Below, in pieces: positions 1-16,890 of a DNA stretch of 64,000 bases. A model generated the notes under the pieces. It saw nothing but the letters and a program-made list of their open reading frames with translations. It was not told the origin of the DNA and did not search any database. Source of the DNA: an uncultured Planctomycetota bacterium (GTDB lineage: Bacteria > Planctomycetota > Planctomycetia > Isosphaerales > Isosphaeraceae); contig CAWJTV010000033.1 in assembly GCA_963845755.1 (NCBI GenBank), forward strand, positions 224,001 through 288,000, given 5' to 3'. The first letter of the stretch is position 1; each line of letters begins with the position of its first letter. Position numbers and translations under genes: made by a program.

Positions 1-2524
1 GCGATGGCGTAATGAGTCAACGCCTCATCCATCGAACTATCCTGGTCCGCGACGTAGGCCAGGTAGAACTGATACCAATAATTGTCCTGCTCGAGCCGGA
101 CGGCATGGCGCATCCATTGGATCGCCCGGCTTCTCTGATCGTTGCGCAGGCAGAGCAGGGCCCACTGGAACGACGCGAGGGCCGATTTCTCGGCGCCGAT
201 CTCGTGGGGCTCGCCTTTGAAAGAGGGGCTATCCCGCCCCGATGGCCGATCCAGCAGACCGTCCCGAGCGTTCCGGGAGCGCTGCACCCAGGCCCGCAGC
301 GCACGCCAGGGCTCCTTCGGCGTGGCGAACGCCAGAGCGGTGTCGCACAACGCGACGAGCTTCGCGATCCCCTCCTCCCGCAGCCGCCGAGCCTGGTCCC
401 CGGCTCCTTGTTCCGAAGAGACGAACTCGTCGAGCGTGACGACCCAGAAGAACAGGAGCTGGTTGACCTCGATCCGGAGCCTCTGGAGGCGCGGGGCGTC
501 GAGCAGTTCGACGATATATTCGAGCTTCGTCCAATCTTGCGAGGTCAGCACGTAGAAGGGGGCCAGCGCGTTCTGGAGCTCGACCCCGGCCTCGGTCAAC
601 TGGCGACGGTTCAGCAAGAGGCGGAACCGGAGCCGCTCGGCGGTCTGGAACAGCGCATCGGCGTCGCCGCGGATCTGGGCGAACCGTTCGGCGAGTTTTC
701 GCTTCTGCATGGCCCGGGTCTGGATCTCGTCGAGGTTCGGGCCGAAGTTGAGGTTCCGCAGCTTGTCGACGACCGCCTTGATCGTGGTCGGGAAGCCCCG
801 CCAACGCGAGGGGTATTTCCGGGGGTCGAGATTGTCGAAGTGGTTGATCAGGTCGATGGTGGCGTCGAGCTGCTTCCGGGCCGTCTCGAACTCGCCGCTA
901 TCGAACGAGGCCACTCCCTTGTCCAATTCCTTCTGGATGAGCTTCCTCGTATCGTCCCGATCGAGGAGGATGCCGAGGCCGGCGAGGAGGGTGGCGGCCA
1001 GCGCGACGAGGATCGCGGATGCCATGGCGAGCCGTCGTCGCCGTCGCCGCAGCCAGCCGGAGATGCGGCTGACCCAGGGTTCGCGCGAGTGGGGCAGCGG
1101 GAGGTCCTTGGAGACGGCCTGGAGGTCGGCGGCCAGCTCGATGGCGGAGGGATATCGGTCGTTGGGCTCGGGCTCGAGGCAGCGGCGGACGATCGCCTCG
1201 AGGGACGGGGGGATCTCAGACTCCAGTGCCCGCGGGTGGGGGGTCGCGCGTCGGCGGTCGTCGGCCGCCCGGAACAGGGCCTCGACGACCGACGAACCGC
1301 GTCGGGGCGACGCGAACGGCCGCTGTCCCGTCAGGGCCTCGAAGAGCACGACGCCGAGGCTGTAGATGTCGGAGCGGCCGTCGACGGCCTCCGGCCCGCC
1401 CTCGGCGAGGGCCAGGAGGTGCTCGGGAGCCATGTAATCGACGGTCCCGCCCAGGGTGGCGGCGTCGGCGGCCGCGCCGTCGGACGCGACCGGCTCGCGC
1501 GCCAGGTTGAAGTCCAGCAGCATGGGCATGCCGTCGGAGGTGACCAGCACGTTCGACGGCTTGATGTCGCGGTGGAGTACGCCGCGATCGTGGGCATGCG
1601 CCAGGGCCTCGGCCAGCCGGGCTCCCCACCAGGCGATCGCCTGGTCATAAGTCCGCAGCGTCAGGGCCACTCGACCCGCCGACGGGCCGGCCGGTACGGC
1701 GTCGCCCGGCTCGAGTCGGTCGATCGCCTCGACCAGCGCCGTCCCCGAGCGGTCATCCCGTTCCCGGCAGTCCGAGAGGACCTGGGCCAGCGTGGTGCGA
1801 CCGAAGTAGGGCATGCACAGCAGATGGAGTCCCGTCGCCCGATCGATCCGGTGGGAGTGCACCGGAACGATATGGGTATGCTGGAGCCGGGCGAGGGTCT
1901 GCGGTTCGCGCGAACCGCGACGGGTGACCTTCAACGCGACGGGGCGGTCGGCCAGTTGCCGCTCCCGGGCCAGGAAGACGCGCGCGAACGCCCCGCGGCC
2001 CAGCTCCTCGACCAGATGAAACCCCGCGATCATCTGGCCGGCCTCGGGGAACGCCCCGGCGGTTCCCCCCATCGACGCCGCTTCGGAAAACAGCGCCGTG
2101 GCCGTCGAACCCGAGCCGACGAGTTGGTGGATCTCCAGCACGCGGCGCAGCGGGCCTGCGACCCGAGAGTACCGGGTCAAGAACTCGGCCGGGTCCGGGG
2201 CCTCCTCATCCTCCTCGCGCAAGCAGAATTCCTCGTACGCCAGCGCGACGATCGTATCTTCGCTCAGGTCGGCGTGGTGGTCGATGTACCATTGCGCCCC
2301 ACCTTCTCCCCGGACTCCCAGCGGAGCGAGAGGTCCGTGCGGAGCAAGGCCAGGCGCGCGCCAACGCCGTCGCCGCCGCCGGCCGACTCGAGAAACGCAT
2401 GGGGATCGGGCCGGTGTCGGAGGTGCTCGGAGTCGCGCCAGGCTTGCTCATACTCTCGGGCCAGACGAACCGCGGCAGGCGACGACGCCTCCTCCCACGT
2501 CCGCCGGCTGGCGGACACGCTCAT
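1..2524 (-). CDS. Ser/Thr protein kinase with TPR repeats (runs off left edge; frameshift near 2300)
   Basis: Starts MSVSASRRTWEE, with its ATG overlapping the sigma stop codon. The minus frame has LGRGAFARVFLA, HRDIKPSNVL, LDFNLA and GTVDYMAPE, then TPR-like helices. The ORF track misses it because it has no stop in the window. Confidence 0.9.
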
Positions 2525-12785: not shown

Positions 12786-13090
12786 CGGGACCTCCGATCA
12801 TGAGGCGTCGGACCCGCTCGTCCGATTGTCGGCGAGGCGGGGCGCGATGATCGCTTCGCCAGGAGAGCGGAAGGGAACGAAGGGGTCATTCACCTCGTAA
12901 CTATACGCATCTCGCGTGAACCGCTCCAGGTCGAGGAAAGCCCTCTCGGCGAAATAGTCCCGCCCATCCGCCGAACTCCTTGACAGGCGGTGTGGTTGCA
13001 GCCAGGATCAGGCCGGGGCGACCGCACCAGGCGGACGCGTATCGGCGGAGACGTTCTCCGCACCGCGGTTGGACTTGGCATCAGGGGTCG

Positions 13091-14228
13091 ATGGCGATGT
13101 TGATGACGGGGCTGTCGGGAAACGAGATCTACTGTCTGGCGCAGAAGGGATTTGACCCCGGGAACATCGTGGTGGGCAACAGCGTCTACTCGCTCGGGTT
13201 GTTGCGGGGTATCACCAGTGGGCTCAAGACGCTCTCGGGTGGGGAGATCGGCAGCATCACCCACCTCATCGTCAACGGCCGGCACGCCGCCATCAGCCGG
13301 CTGGAGAAGGAGGCCCAGGACGAAGGGGATCGGGGGCTGACCGGCGTCGCCTCCGAACTGCGGAAGATCGGGAATCTGATGGAGTTCCTCGCGATCGGCT
13401 CCTCCGTCAAGAGCAAGGCAGCCGCCGGCTCGTTCTTCTCGACGGCCTGCTCCGGGCAGGATCTGTTCTGTCAGATCGACTCGGGCTATGAACCCCGACA
13501 CTTCGTGATCGGCAACGTCGCCTACGCGTTGGGGGTCGCGCGGGATCTCGGGCGGGCTGAAGATGTTCGCCCGGCGCGGCGAGGTCAAGGAGTTCTCGGA
13601 CATGTACAACCACACGCGCCATCTCGCCCTGGAGCGGCTGGAGGCCGAGGCGGCCGAGCGCGGTTGCAACGCGGTGGTTGACGTCATCACCCGGATCATC
13701 CCGTTCGGGCCGGGAGTCCGGGAGATGCTCATGGTCGGCACCGGCTCGTACAACCCGGCGCTGGGGCAGCCGAAGGTGCCCTATACGTCCGAGCTGACCG
13801 GTGAAGAGCTCTGGAATCTGACCCAGTTGGGCTATGCGCCGCTGCGGCTCTTGCTGGGGACGAGCGTCTACGCGCTGGGGCTTGCCGGCGGCATCTCTGC
13901 ATTCTTCCAATCGTTCGGCCGGGGCGAGATCGATGAGGTCACCCGGCTGGTCTACGACGCCCGGGAGAACTGCCTCGACCACATCCGAATCGAGGCCCAG
14001 CAATTGAAGGCCGACGCGGTCATCGGCGTCAAGCTCTTCATCAACGAGCTGGGCTCGGGACTCGTCGAGGTGATGGCCATCGGCACGGGGATCCGCAAGC
14101 ACGCCGGCGTCTCGACCCAGAGCGATCAGCTCATCCCGCAGGCCATCACCCGCGATCGCGACACGTTCTTCGACCAGGCCCCGGCCGTGCCGGGAATGCC
14201 GCAACCCCGGAACCTCGAACGAGCCTGA
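13091..14228 (+). CDS. Multi-domain YbjQ/heavy-metal-binding family protein (frameshift near 13545)
   Basis: Three repeated units (GNSVYSLG / GNVAYALG / GTSVYALG, each ending in AIGS, MVGT or AIGT) across two ORFs. Confidence 0.85.
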
Positions 14229-14366: not shown

Positions 14367-14395
14367 TTGATTGCCCGGGGTCGGGCGGATACATT
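14367..14395 (+). promoter_or_regulatory. Sigma70-type promoter
   Basis: TTGATT-N17-TACATT. Confidence 0.65.
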
Positions 14396-14399
14396 TGAG

Positions 14400-14675
14400 T
14401 TGTCGGTCGAGACATGACACACAGCATCGGCCGACTTTCGTGTGGGTCGCGCGAACGGCGCGACGGACTAGAGCCCGCCCCAGCTCGAGGCTGGTCTCTG
14501 GCTGGTCCGGGGAGGCTAGAACGAAAGGAGGTGATCGCGTGTGTAGTGATAACCAGGAGCGGCTCGCCTAACGGCAGCCGACGGGTTGCCCGTCGGGCAG
14601 CCGCATGCTTGACCATAACCTTACGGTTGGGATCGGCCAGGTTCGGGCCTCCGGGTTTCGAGCCTGGCCGGATCC
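14400..14675 (+). ncRNA. Candidate structured RNA or small-ORF transcript
   Basis: Serial hairpins downstream of the promoter, GAAAGGAGGTGATC at 14523-14536, a 10-codon ORF at 14539-14571 and a long terminal hairpin at 14630-14675. Confidence 0.5.
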
Positions 14676-14729
14676 TATGTGCTATAAGATCTTCTTGCCT
14701 TGGGTTTGCTGAACGGGAGACGGGCTCCA

Positions 14730-14846
14730 TTGGTTCGGACCTACGCGGGTGAGTACGGCCTGTTCTTTGACCGTGGCTGGTGGTGGTCCTGGGCGTTTAC
14801 CAGCTCCACGACAGGTCGCCGGGCCGAGGACGGAGTATCCCCCTGA
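14730..14846 (+). CDS. Aromatic amino acid attenuator leader peptide (38 aa)
   Basis: TTG start with GGGAG upstream; MVRTYAGEYGLFFDRGWWWSWAFTSSTTGRRAEDGVSP contains 2 Tyr, 3 Phe and 4 Trp; lies upstream of a terminator and DAHP synthase. Confidence 0.85.
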   Translation: MVRTYAGEYGLFFDRGWWWSWAFTSSTTGRRAEDGVSP

Positions 14847-14878
14847 CTCCCGACTCAACTTCTTGAGCATACACACCA

Positions 14879-14915
14879 AGCCCCGGGACCTCTCGACAGG
14901 TCCCGGGGCTTTTTT
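14879..14915 (+). terminator. Intrinsic terminator (attenuator)
   Basis: 13-bp stem agccccgggacct/aggtcccggggct, 6-nt loop and a T-tract. Confidence 0.9.
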
Positions 14916-14967
14916 GTTGGCGATTTCCGATTCTCCGGTCATGGGTGCAGACTGGCGAATGCCTTGT

Positions 14968-15025
14968 GTAGGTCGGGCTTTCCAGCCTGACGCCCGGTCC
15001 TGTCAGGCGGGAAAGCCTGACCTAC
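14968..15025. repeat. GTAG-type REP doublet
   Basis: gtaggtcgggctttccagcctgac ... gtcaggcgggaaagcctgacctac, an imperfect inverted repeat. Confidence 0.8.
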
Positions 15026-15057
15026 TCTAGATCCAACACTCGGGAGGGCGGTCAACC

Positions 15058-16071
15058 GTGATCGTGGTCATGAAAGCGGACGCAACACCGGCGCAGATCG
15101 CGCACATGGCGGATCATATCGCCTCGCTGGGTTTCAAGCCCCAGGTGATCCACGGGACGCACCAGACGGTCATCGCGGCCCTGGGTGAAGAGCGGGCCGG
15201 TCTGACCGAGGCTCTCGAACCCGGCGAGGGCGTGGAGAAGGTCTTGCCGATCATGGCGCCGTACAAGCGTGCGTCGTCCGAGCTGAAGCGCGAGCGGACG
15301 ATGGTCAAGGCGCGGGGGCTGGAGGTCGGCGGCACGCGCGTGGCGGTGATCGCCGGCCCGTGCTCAGTCGAGGATGAGGAGCAGATCGTCGCGCTGGCGC
15401 GGAAGCTCAAGAGCCTGGGCGCCACCGGGCTGCGCGGCGGTGCGTTCAAGCCGCGGACCAGTCCGTACAGCTTCCAGGGTCACAAGGAGCTGGGGCTGAA
15501 GATGCTCGCCACGGCGCGGGCCGAGACCGGGCTGGCCATCGTCACGGAGGTCATGGCACCCGAGCATGTCCCGATGGTCGCGGAATATGCCGACGTCCTC
15601 CAGATCGGCGCACGCAACATGCAGAACTATCAGTTACTTCAAGCGGTCGGCGACTCGGGAAAACCCACCATGCTGAAGCGCGGGATGAGTGCCACGGTAG
15701 ACGAGTTCCTCCTGGCCGCCGAGTACATCCTCGACCGCGGCAACCCGCACGTGATGCTCTGCGAGCGCGGCATCCGCACGTATGAGGACCACACCCGATT
15801 CACGCTCCCGCTGGCGACGGTCCCCTACCTGCACGACAAGAGTCACCTGCCCGTGGTAGTCAACCCCTCGCATGGCACCGGCAAGGCGAAACTCGTCGCA
15901 CCGATGGCCAAGGCCGCGGTCGCCGCCGGGGCCGACGCGTTGATGGTCGAAGTCCACGACGACCCCGAGCACGCTGCTAGCGACGGCGCCCAGACCATCA
16001 CGCCGGCCGCGTTCAAGCAAATGGTCAACCAGTGCCGCCGAATCGCCGAGGCCGTCGATCGGACGATGTGA
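15058..16071 (+). CDS. aroF: 3-deoxy-7-phosphoheptulonate (DAHP) synthase, type I-beta with N-terminal regulatory domain
   Basis: [37 protein letters not shown] and LCERGIRT motifs. Confidence 0.95.
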
Positions 16072-16153
16072 TTCGCCAAGGTCGTTCGATTTGGGGTGGA
16101 ATGCAGGAAACGCAAAAGCCCGCGACCGACCGTCACGAAGCCAGGAAACGATC

Positions 16154-16399
16154 ATGCCGTTGGTGATTCCTGATGAGGCGCTGCGAGAGGCGGGCCTCAG
16201 CGAACGGGATGCGCTGGTGGAGTTCGACTGCCGGATATTTGCGGCCGAGAAGCTCACGCTCTGGTCGGCTTCGAAGCTCGCGGGGTTGAGCCGGGTCTCG
16301 TTTGAACAGGAGCTTTTCTCCCGCGGGATTCCCCTCTATCGGCCGGATCCCCACGATCTGGCCGAGGATCTCGCCGCGATGGATCAAGTGGGAGCCTGA
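16154..16399 (+). CDS. UPF0175 family protein (putative antitoxin)
   Basis: KLTLWSASKLAGLSRVSFEQELFSRGIP; directly upstream of a PIN-domain gene. Confidence 0.85.
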   Translation: MPLVIPDEALREAGLSERDALVEFDCRIFAAEKLTLWSASKLAGLSRVSFEQELFSRGIPLYRPDPHDLAEDLAAMDQVGA

Positions 16400-16401
16400 T
16401 C

Positions 16402-16890
16402 GTGGCTGTCGTCGTCAGCGACACCTCTCCGATTCGGGCGTTGGCGCATCGGGACCTGCTTGCGCTGCTCCCGGGGTTTTTTTCGCAAGTGCTGGTGCCT
16501 CCGGTTGTGGATGACGAGCTGAAGACGCCACCGGCAGGGCTGCCCCGTGTCGATGTCAGGGATCTTCGCTTCGTGACCATCCAGGCGCCACGCGATCGGG
16601 CGAAAGTAAAGGTGCTTCTTCGGGATCTTGATCCTGGCGAATCAGAAGCCCTGGCACTGGCCGTGGAGGTCGGTGTTTCGGCGGTCCTCATCGATGAGAG
16701 TGCCGGTCGGAGAATGGCGAGGCAACTCGGGCTGCTTCCGATCGGGGTTCTTGGTGTTCTGATCCGGGCCAAACCGCGCGGGCTGGTACCCGAGGTCGTT
16801 CCTCTCCTCGACCGTCTGAGAAGCGAGCTGGGCTTCTTCATCTCCGATCAGTTGCGGGCCGAAGTACAGCGCCTCGCCGGTGGGCCTTGA
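16402..16890 (+). CDS. DUF3368 PIN-domain protein (putative toxin)
   Basis: VVSDTSP, LDPGESEALALA, VLIDE and GVLGVLIRAK motifs. Confidence 0.88.
   Translation: MAVVVSDTSPIRALAHRDLLALLPGFFSQVLVPPVVDDELKTPPAGLPRVDVRDLRFVTIQAPRDRAKVKVLLRDLDPGESEALALAVEVGVSAVLIDESAGRRMARQLGLLPIGVLGVLIRAKPRGLVPEVVPLLDRLRSELGFFISDQLRAEVQRLAGGP

Follow-up and report, generated by a model that had tools for sequence, protein, structure and literature searches.

The locus described here lies at positions 14367-14675, on the plus strand, of a 64,000-nt stretch of DNA (the window) from an uncultured bacterium of the Planctomycetota (assembly GCA_963845755.1, contig CAWJTV010000033.1, positions 224,001 to 288,000). Comparison with related sequences confirmed that it is a stand-alone, structured mini-messenger RNA (mini-mRNA), a single-copy gene of Planctomycetota, and it appears to be the planctomycete form of the rre mRNAs of Alphaproteobacteria. 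The comparison established a gene independent of its neighbors, a fold, an extended Shine-Dalgarno (SD) sequence, a short open reading frame (ORF) that is kept in frame while the peptide is free to vary, a covarying pseudoknot and the enrichment of a second SD-like run, SD2, near the end of the ORF. As for the function, we find it quite plausible, although we hold the view tentatively, that the RNA does its job at the ribosome and not through the peptide: passage of a ribosome would refold the RNA and set its turnover, and in this way the RNA would gauge or buffer the supply of ribosomes. The parts listed in an earlier reading of the sequence alone (the sequence-only reading) were all found in their places in the window sequence. 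The layout of the locus is as follows.

14367..14395 (+): sigma70-type promoter; -35 TTGATT at 14367-14372, 17-nt spacer, -10 TACATT at 14390-14395
14402..14435 (+): P1 hairpin; two-sided changes in 7 of 9 pairs
14417-14422 (+): P1 loop, ACACAC, able to pair with the start-codon region
14436..14441 (+): 5' strand of P0; the partner, 14521-14526, is directly 5' of the SD core
14446..14464 (+): P2 hairpin with ACG in its loop; two-sided changes in 5 of 7 pairs
14465..14519 (+): P3, a long interrupted hairpin; two-sided changes in 8 of 8 pairs of the main helix
14490-14495 (+): P3 apical loop, predicted pseudoknot partner of ACCAG in the ORF (14552-14556)
14523..14536 (+): SD1, GAAAGGAGGTGATC, a 14-nt perfect complement of the 3' tail of the genome's own 16S RNA
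14539..14571 (+): 10-codon ORF, MCSDNQERLA; GTG start at 14539, TAA stop
14555..14559 (+): SD2, a second purine run resembling an SD; its register fits the last sense codon and the stop
14559..14604 (+): 3' rod; 14559-14564 and 14599-14604 form the outer stem, and the stop codon lies at the junction
14573-14590 (+): inner hairpin of the 3' rod with GACG loop; pairing preserved across the phylum
14584-14602 (+): alternative 3' hairpin of constrained folds, formed when the ORF end is covered
14630..14675 (+): closing GC-rich, terminator-like hairpin; no U-tract in this genome, not listed by the terminator scan

The promoter had been called a good one in the sequence-only reading. The pattern TTG-16..19-TAnnnT, 105-145 nt upstream of the SD, is present in all 32 loci of the family (a permissive pattern of uncalculated chance rate), but the copy in the window agrees with the consensus at only 8 of 12 positions and is below the threshold of a simple scan, so that it was not listed; transcription would start near 14401-14402. 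The proposed hairpins are all present. The region folds with z = -5.6, none of 100 shuffles being equally stable, and about 120 nt of covarying hairpins constitute a 5' domain ahead of SD1. For the ccgacggg/cccgtcgg stem, however, the family alignment offers no two-sided change, and three loci (L010, L026 and L033) have it broken; the hairpin kept across the phylum is the GRCG hairpin at 14573-14590. The closing stem exists as well, but as a terminator it falls short in the two respects listed above. A possible kink-turn in P3 was discarded, since its GA pairs are not preserved.

The SD is the most conserved element of the RNA, and the SD1 core is invariant in alignment A3 (from which L051, L052, L093 and L147 were excluded). 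The complementarity of the 14-mer to the 16S tail, already claimed from the sequence, was verified against the genome's own 16S 3' end on contig C27. In the 14.27-Mb genome GAAAGGAGGTGATC has two copies, the one described here and the reverse complement of the 16S 3' end, so that this locus is its only copy outside 16S. A stray 16S fragment was ruled out: the flanks of the 14-mer are unlike those in the 16S gene.

Within its own, Isosphaeraceae-like family the element was detected by BLAST in 31 of 36 genomes and in none of 24 genomes of other families, where the one match covered the aroF terminator only. Records scoring above 140 bits with the model are labeled Isosphaeraceae, Isosphaerales, Tautonia, Paludisphaera or carry broader planctomycete names. 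All 32 family loci have the promoter-like pattern, the SD core, a GTG at 7-8 nt and an intact frame, which is 10 codons long in 28 loci and 11 in four, each time through a 3-nt insertion; in five of the 32, TGA replaces TAA. In an alignment of 31 family sequences (A1, made without L010 because of its 36-nt insertion) two-sided changes were found in 26 of the 52 named pairs, and none of 500 shuffles reached any of the measures, a control that is inflated by relatedness; with slid partners the paired share dropped from 90% to 32-48%. Covariation, which the sequence-only reading had proposed as a check, is thus present, and P1, P2 and P3 appear well supported. P0 appears weak (72.6% of cells paired, two-sided change in one of five pairs).

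Beyond the family, model R1 matched 15 of 150 further genomes of the phylum, and a pattern scan with one genome per species yielded at least 119 loci. Of 80 among the 119 listed loci on which R1 was run, 41 had E < 0.003, all of them planctomycete-labeled apart from one 'uncultured bacterium'; the 46 loci outside the planctomycete set, among the matches listed, were mostly chance matches within genes. Model R2, built on the core from the SD to the 3' end, matched at least 78 of 101 genomes of the class and at least 51 of 151 of the phylum, with one match each; the counts are lower bounds, few candidates having been scored per genome. Among 41 genomes belonging to the phylum of G243, R2 matched one, and it found nothing in the single genomes G241, G247, G248 and G249, which speaks for those genomes alone and does not mean absence. 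Outside the Planctomycetota, the genes L186, L191, L184 and L065 combine an extended SD and a mini-ORF with a run like SD2 (two in the phylum of G243, one in Thermotogaceae and one in a Pseudomonadota record), and in L186 a long structured 5' region follows a TTGACA promoter. The comparisons below rest on 116 loci, which include scan loci among the matches listed and are not independent, some having been reached by two routes (L107, L125 and L163 were excluded for lack of a short ORF, L136 because of a short flank), and on 45 representatives with less than 80% identity, 27 of which came from a pattern requiring the GRCG loop.

The 10-codon GTG-to-TAA ORF of the sequence-only reading is one of a series. 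Over the 116 loci the ORF has 10-16 codons and begins with GTG in 103, ATG in 11 and TTG in two. The scan pattern set the position of the stop irrespective of frame, and among the matches listed 70 of 73 planctomycete loci have a start in frame with this stop, whose place follows from the structure, as opposed to 1 of 46 others. The peptide sequence differs from class to class. Its Cys codons are TGT in 39 cases and TGC in five, whereas the genome bias is the opposite, 2.6:1 favoring TGC; the constraint therefore acts on the RNA. By these comparisons the frame is selected and the peptide mostly is not, so that from the idea of a micropeptide mRNA the kept frame stands but conservation of the peptide across the phylum does not. 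A reading in which the peptide of 10-16 residues, often containing Cys, is the product, made at a low and tightly set rate, seems improbable to us. The kept frame, the presence of Cys in the peptides of 32 of the 45 representatives and the conservation of D/E-N-Q-x-R-L-A within the family, with some synonymous Leu changes, are in its favor, as are the rre peptides, conserved within clades according to the available text of PMC5711450. However, the sequence turns over between classes, TGT is strongly favored over TGC, pairing accounts for most of the ORF bases, and the same text reports no structure for the synthetic RreB and RreR peptides and no growth effect of RreB overproduction.

In the 45 representatives the apical loop of P3 fits its own ORF better than the ORFs of others: the Watson-Crick run is 4.71 versus 3.93 (0 of 20,000 permutations) and the energy -10.3 versus -8.7 kcal/mol. 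The signal persists at 22 and at 15 representatives, seven of eight control tests were non-significant, and the words that pair are wholly different among lineages, for example in L038, L041, L042, L046 and L078. These observations point to a covarying pseudoknot that fastens the ORF to the 5' domain, a feature new relative to rre, CC2171 and Ms_IGR-5. Between the P1 loop and the SD/start region (n = 26) the run was 5.8 nt for cognate, 5.4 nt for non-cognate (p = 0.019) and 3.8 nt for shuffled combinations. Taking this pairing together with the minimum-free-energy (MFE) fold, which hides the SD, the RNA may have an open and a closed state. In L029, L030 and L032 the P1 loop is pyrimidine-rich and complementary to the SD rather than to the start codon; in these loci the 5' lock seems to have switched its target and yet to have persisted.

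On the other side of the ORF, the duplex between the ORF end and the 3' strand came to -16.3 with the cognate and -11.3 with swapped strands in the representatives. The loop of the inner hairpin is GACG in 26 and GGCG in 19 of the 45, and the hairpin is present in the MFE fold of 35. The C-GRCG-G loop, a new element, is constant in all 45, partly by selection, because the pattern demanded it for 27 of them. The alternative 3' hairpin covaries (-10.3 versus -7.4 kcal/mol), two control pairings do not, and in constrained folds it appears when the termination footprint is kept open, which suggests a 3' fold switchable by translation, also new here. An SD2 run of at least 4 bases, 5-8 nt ahead of the last sense codon, is found in 40 of the 45 representatives compared with 17% of 4146 long-ORF ends of the genome; for at least 5 bases the figures are 29 of 45 and 6%. 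It was present in 24 of 27 loci retrieved with a pattern that left it unspecified. SD2 looks like a new feature of the planctomycete form. Such a run was also seen in two loci each of Ms_IGR-5 and the acidobacterial type and in one each of Thermotogaceae and CC2171.

If the RNA works at the ribosome, the following course can be envisaged. At rest the ORF would be locked: pseudoknot pairing to the P3 loop would hold the first half, and the 3' rod would take up the second. The extended SD would dock the RNA on the 16S tail, and the lock and the GTG start would slow initiation. An elongating ribosome would unzip the pseudoknot and the outer stem, exposing SD2, whose register suits a ribosome with its P site on the last codon and its A site on the stop; the terminating ribosome would in this way be passed from SD1 to SD2 and would linger there. 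With the end of the ORF covered, the 3' domain would refold, the GRCG hairpin being replaced by the hairpin at 14584-14602. Refolding would probably set decay or the binding of a partner, as the start codon sets the decay of rreB. Through its level and shape the RNA would then indicate, or buffer, how many free and recycling ribosomes are available.

Several observations weigh against this scheme. One of the pseudoknot controls was nominally significant by energy (p = 0.012), the signal is weak once G-U pairs are allowed (p = 0.025), at least 5 Watson-Crick pairs are formed in only 25 of the 45 representatives (with automatic loop picking), and inside the family the loop-ORF pair is invariant. 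GC-matched shifted windows yield SD2-like runs in 6-16 of 45, and SD2 is 51-98% paired within the 3' rod, so that it may be merely a G-rich strand of a stem; L185, an rre-like alphaproteobacterial locus, is without SD2. In the MFE fold of the copy in the window the 5' end forms a rod with the SD region instead of P1, so that the SD is hidden and the resting state uncertain. Finally, 20-fold overexpression of rreB had no growth effect, as stated in the available text of PMC5711450.

The sequence-only reading had suggested a small RNA that binds or traps 30S subunits. A separately encoded, structured RNA engaging 30S or 70S particles agrees with the comparative data and, by analogy, with the tested rreB (PMC5711450, as far as its available text goes). 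Such an RNA could also act by binding alone, as a very abundant store or sponge that stoichiometrically occupies the 16S tail and keeps 30S or 70S particles parked, or the anti-SD shielded, the sole part of translation being to release and clear it. We regard this as rather unlikely, although not negligible. The complement to the 16S tail of the window's genome (G000) is 12-17 nt long in 104 of the 116 loci, reaching at least 16 nt in 12 loci and 10 of the 45 representatives when judged against that tail alone, and the duplex of SD1 with the 16S tail amounts to -26.5 kcal/mol. A weak hint of abundance came from metatranscriptomes. A small share of the stretch is contained in 20 runs from 12 studies, 19 of them recorded as RNA. 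In each of four metatranscriptomes compared at 80% likeness contigs lay over the core and none over the promoter bins, where their lack is uninformative; cover begins in the 14386-14439 bin or the next one. Summed contig depth was 7e4-1.5e6 over 14494-14601, peaked at 800-2800 over the aroF leader and was at most about 90 over aroF. These four runs were chosen for this stretch, the contigs are those of relatives with depths summed over organisms, and contigs cannot rank genes; the cover therefore shows presence in RNA libraries and only hints at abundance. Against a store stand the strict keeping of the frame, which implies elongation up to the stop, and the reports in the available text of PMC5711450 that rreB overexpression did not slow growth and that ribosomes far outnumber rreB.

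The loops could in principle be the business end of the molecule, with the two CG-containing loops, that of P2 and the GRCG loop, binding a protein or kissing each other and with translation acting as an off switch only. We judge such a protein-binding or trans-pairing RNA to be quite improbable. The GRCG loop is shared by all representatives, and a small 5' loop carries ACG in 32 of the 45, or one of ACG, GCG and CCG in 35, versus 16.6 expected from shuffles. There is a precedent in MuLV RNA, where GACG tetraloops form loop-loop contacts (PMC5874298, seen in part). But it is the SD that is best conserved, and the manner in which 27 of the representatives were found favored the loop from the outset.

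Downstream of the RNA, on the same strand, lies a gene of aromatic amino acid synthesis with control elements of its own.

14730-14846 (+): 38-codon aromatic-rich leader ORF with TTG start; context, outside the RNA
14878-14918 (+): U-tailed terminator of the aroF leader; context, outside the RNA
15058-16071 (+): aroF, with its own leader and terminator upstream

The sequence-only reading had considered a second regulatory layer for aroF, and as an ancestral role this was not borne out. In 31 of the 32 family loci aroF follows at 164-850 nt; among 85 long loci it is downstream in 50, all of the family type, and in none of the 32 distant ones. The neighbors of these 32 are mixed and lie on either strand, with Pfam matches in 32 of 58 frames and no protein family beside more than two loci, and the RNA is therefore a stand-alone unit. 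A role as a cis leader, in which the promoter and a leaky closing hairpin feed the aroF operon and tune it through translation of the mini-ORF, is in our estimate distinctly improbable. Read-through into the aroF leader is possible in this family, since the closing stem here has no U-tract, and low-depth contigs of relatives bridge 14606-14825, although a contig does not show a single transcript. Against the role are the absence of aroF and the varied neighbors outside the family, the U-tailed terminators of 57 of the 116 homologous loci (TTTT within stop+45..150), the attenuator that aroF already has, and the mini-ORF itself, which contains no aromatic codon by which to exert such control.

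The aroF leader is rich in Trp, Phe and Tyr, with four Trp in five codons. With its terminator it makes the segment 14730-14918 a ribosome-mediated attenuator, to which all three aromatic amino acids may be signals; the Trp-rich frame recurs in most family homologues and is missing from L029, L030 and L032. A long hairpin at 14960-15033, past the U-tailed terminator and ahead of the aroF start, has chance matches to miRNA families and looks like a dispersed palindromic repeat. After aroF, at 16091-16890 (+), adjoining UPF0175 and DUF3368 genes follow, which we take to be an antitoxin and a PIN-like toxin. Upstream, overlapping frames at 12980-13681 and 13563-14228 (+) each have a YbjQ_1 domain and probably belong to a single gene that is split, near 13550, by a frameshift or an error of sequencing. 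A link between this gene and the RNA was ruled out, as it is present at one of the 32 family loci.

The sequence-only reading had recognized no known RNA family and proposed an Rfam scan. Over the whole window no family reached its cut-off, and at E <=10 only weak hairpin matches and CC2171 appeared; the class itself, however, has been published, in the form of the alphaproteobacterial rre mRNAs, Rfam CC2171 and Ms_IGR-5, all of unsolved function. In the open literature we found no publication on this RNA in Planctomycetota, although unexamined supplements could hold the motif. The main texts of the motif surveys PMC11109978, PMC5737381 and PMC8632094 have no planctomycete term, their supplements possibly holding the motif; four such terms were absent from the one supplement file of PMC5711450; and the available parts of PMC10117765 and PMC4833913 contain nothing bearing on this RNA. 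The Rhodopirellula-1 motif, a planctomycete-linked RNA without Rfam number, is different: its rows in the available part of PMC2864571 are single hairpins of about 90-110 nt with no extended SD or ORF.

Two common RNAs were ruled out. Neither ARAGORN nor Rfam found transfer-messenger RNA (tmRNA, RF00023) in the window, and the genome's tmRNA is on C31. The tags of tmRNA end in LA, as the peptide here does, but the genome's own tag differs and the LA ending is not kept across the phylum. 6S RNA (RF00013) had no match in the window either; the only 6S candidate of the genome (L034:1501-1671, G000:C20), at 35.6 bits, is below the Rfam cut-off. In the mRNA of rpsO (S15), a pseudoknot beside the SD traps the 30S subunit, and only its unfolding lets the start codon be accommodated. 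Unlike rpsO, which is a cis leader with a known repressor, the RNA described here has no shared downstream gene.

The closest likeness is to rreB and rreR (Hahn 2016, PMC5711450; the statements on rre genes that follow refer to its available text). They too have their own promoter and terminator, the ends here being deduced from the sequence, together with an extended complement of the 16S tail, a GTG start 7 nt past the SD core, an ORF (14-18 codons in rreB/rreR) conserved inside but not between clades, and a gene context kept inside the family only. rreB is a 165-nt mRNA with a 17-nt SD, GTG and 14 codons; it binds 30S, is weakly translated and is longer-lived without the start codon. The function of rre was left open, and Alphaproteobacteria alone were reported. 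Measured against the features of rre genes, the RNA has the short ORF (10-16 codons here) with GTG directly after the extended SD, and it is a stand-alone gene whose context is not conserved past the family, this copy lacking a U-tract; the complement, which in rre is 16-17 nt long and reaches the first base of the start codon, is 14 nt here. In rreB 8 nt precede the 17-nt complement, whereas here about 120 nt of structured 5' domain precede it. The pseudoknot, the second SD and the GRCG loop were not seen for rreB/rreR (PMC5711450).

The consensus of CC2171 (RF01867), a small RNA of Caulobacter, has the same 14-mer followed by GUG. Its model scores 18.3 bits here and 31.5 bits with the best homologue, below the cut-off of 75 bits, which was exceeded in none of five genomes; the match spans the SD to the terminator and omits the 5' domain. 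Its best matches in G173 and G153 are homologues of the present RNA, and a true CC2171 member (L161/L183) has an SD2-like run and 34 bits with R2. For Ms_IGR-5 (RF02471, cut-off 45 bits), a small RNA of Actinobacteria, there was no match at the locus up to E 10, and none of five genomes exceeded the cut-off; R2 gives two members 7-12 bits. In the two Streptomyces members L192 and L193 (1500-1720) the SD is near the 5' end, and a 12-codon ORF has GAGGTG 8 nt ahead of its last codon. The TTGATC -35 element of their promoters also occurs in the planctomycete family. By eye, in these two sequences, a long hairpin lies 3' of the ORF and contains a 6-7-nt word complementary to it, so that the order is mirrored; this suggests an equivalent pseudoknot whose hairpin flanks the ORF on the opposite side. 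CC2171 and Ms_IGR-5 are described as expressed yet uncharacterized in the parts available of 10.1101/2022.01.24.477521, 10.1101/2021.12.14.472595 and PMC8079986.

So far, extended-SD mini-mRNAs have stood as an unexplained oddity of a few lineages of Alphaproteobacteria and Actinobacteria. The RNA described here adds a family that is missing from Rfam and is seen in soil and plant metatranscriptomes, and its single copy in most of the Planctomycetia searched, together with its richer covarying fold, argues for a housekeeping role. One may speculate, against what we hold to be considerable odds, that rre, CC2171, Ms_IGR-5 and this RNA form one ancient, widespread and abundant class of ribosome-binding RNA, with Ms_IGR-5 as a domain-permuted member, in which two SDs 10-16 codons apart carry the ribosome from initiation to held termination. 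Like tmRNA and 6S it would be a housekeeping RNA, one that gauges recycling ribosomes or keeps them in reserve, and the pseudoknot lock of the planctomycete form would reveal its mechanism. The pseudoknot, the second SD and the 3' switch are handles that can be broken and restored, and with them the function of the whole class becomes testable.
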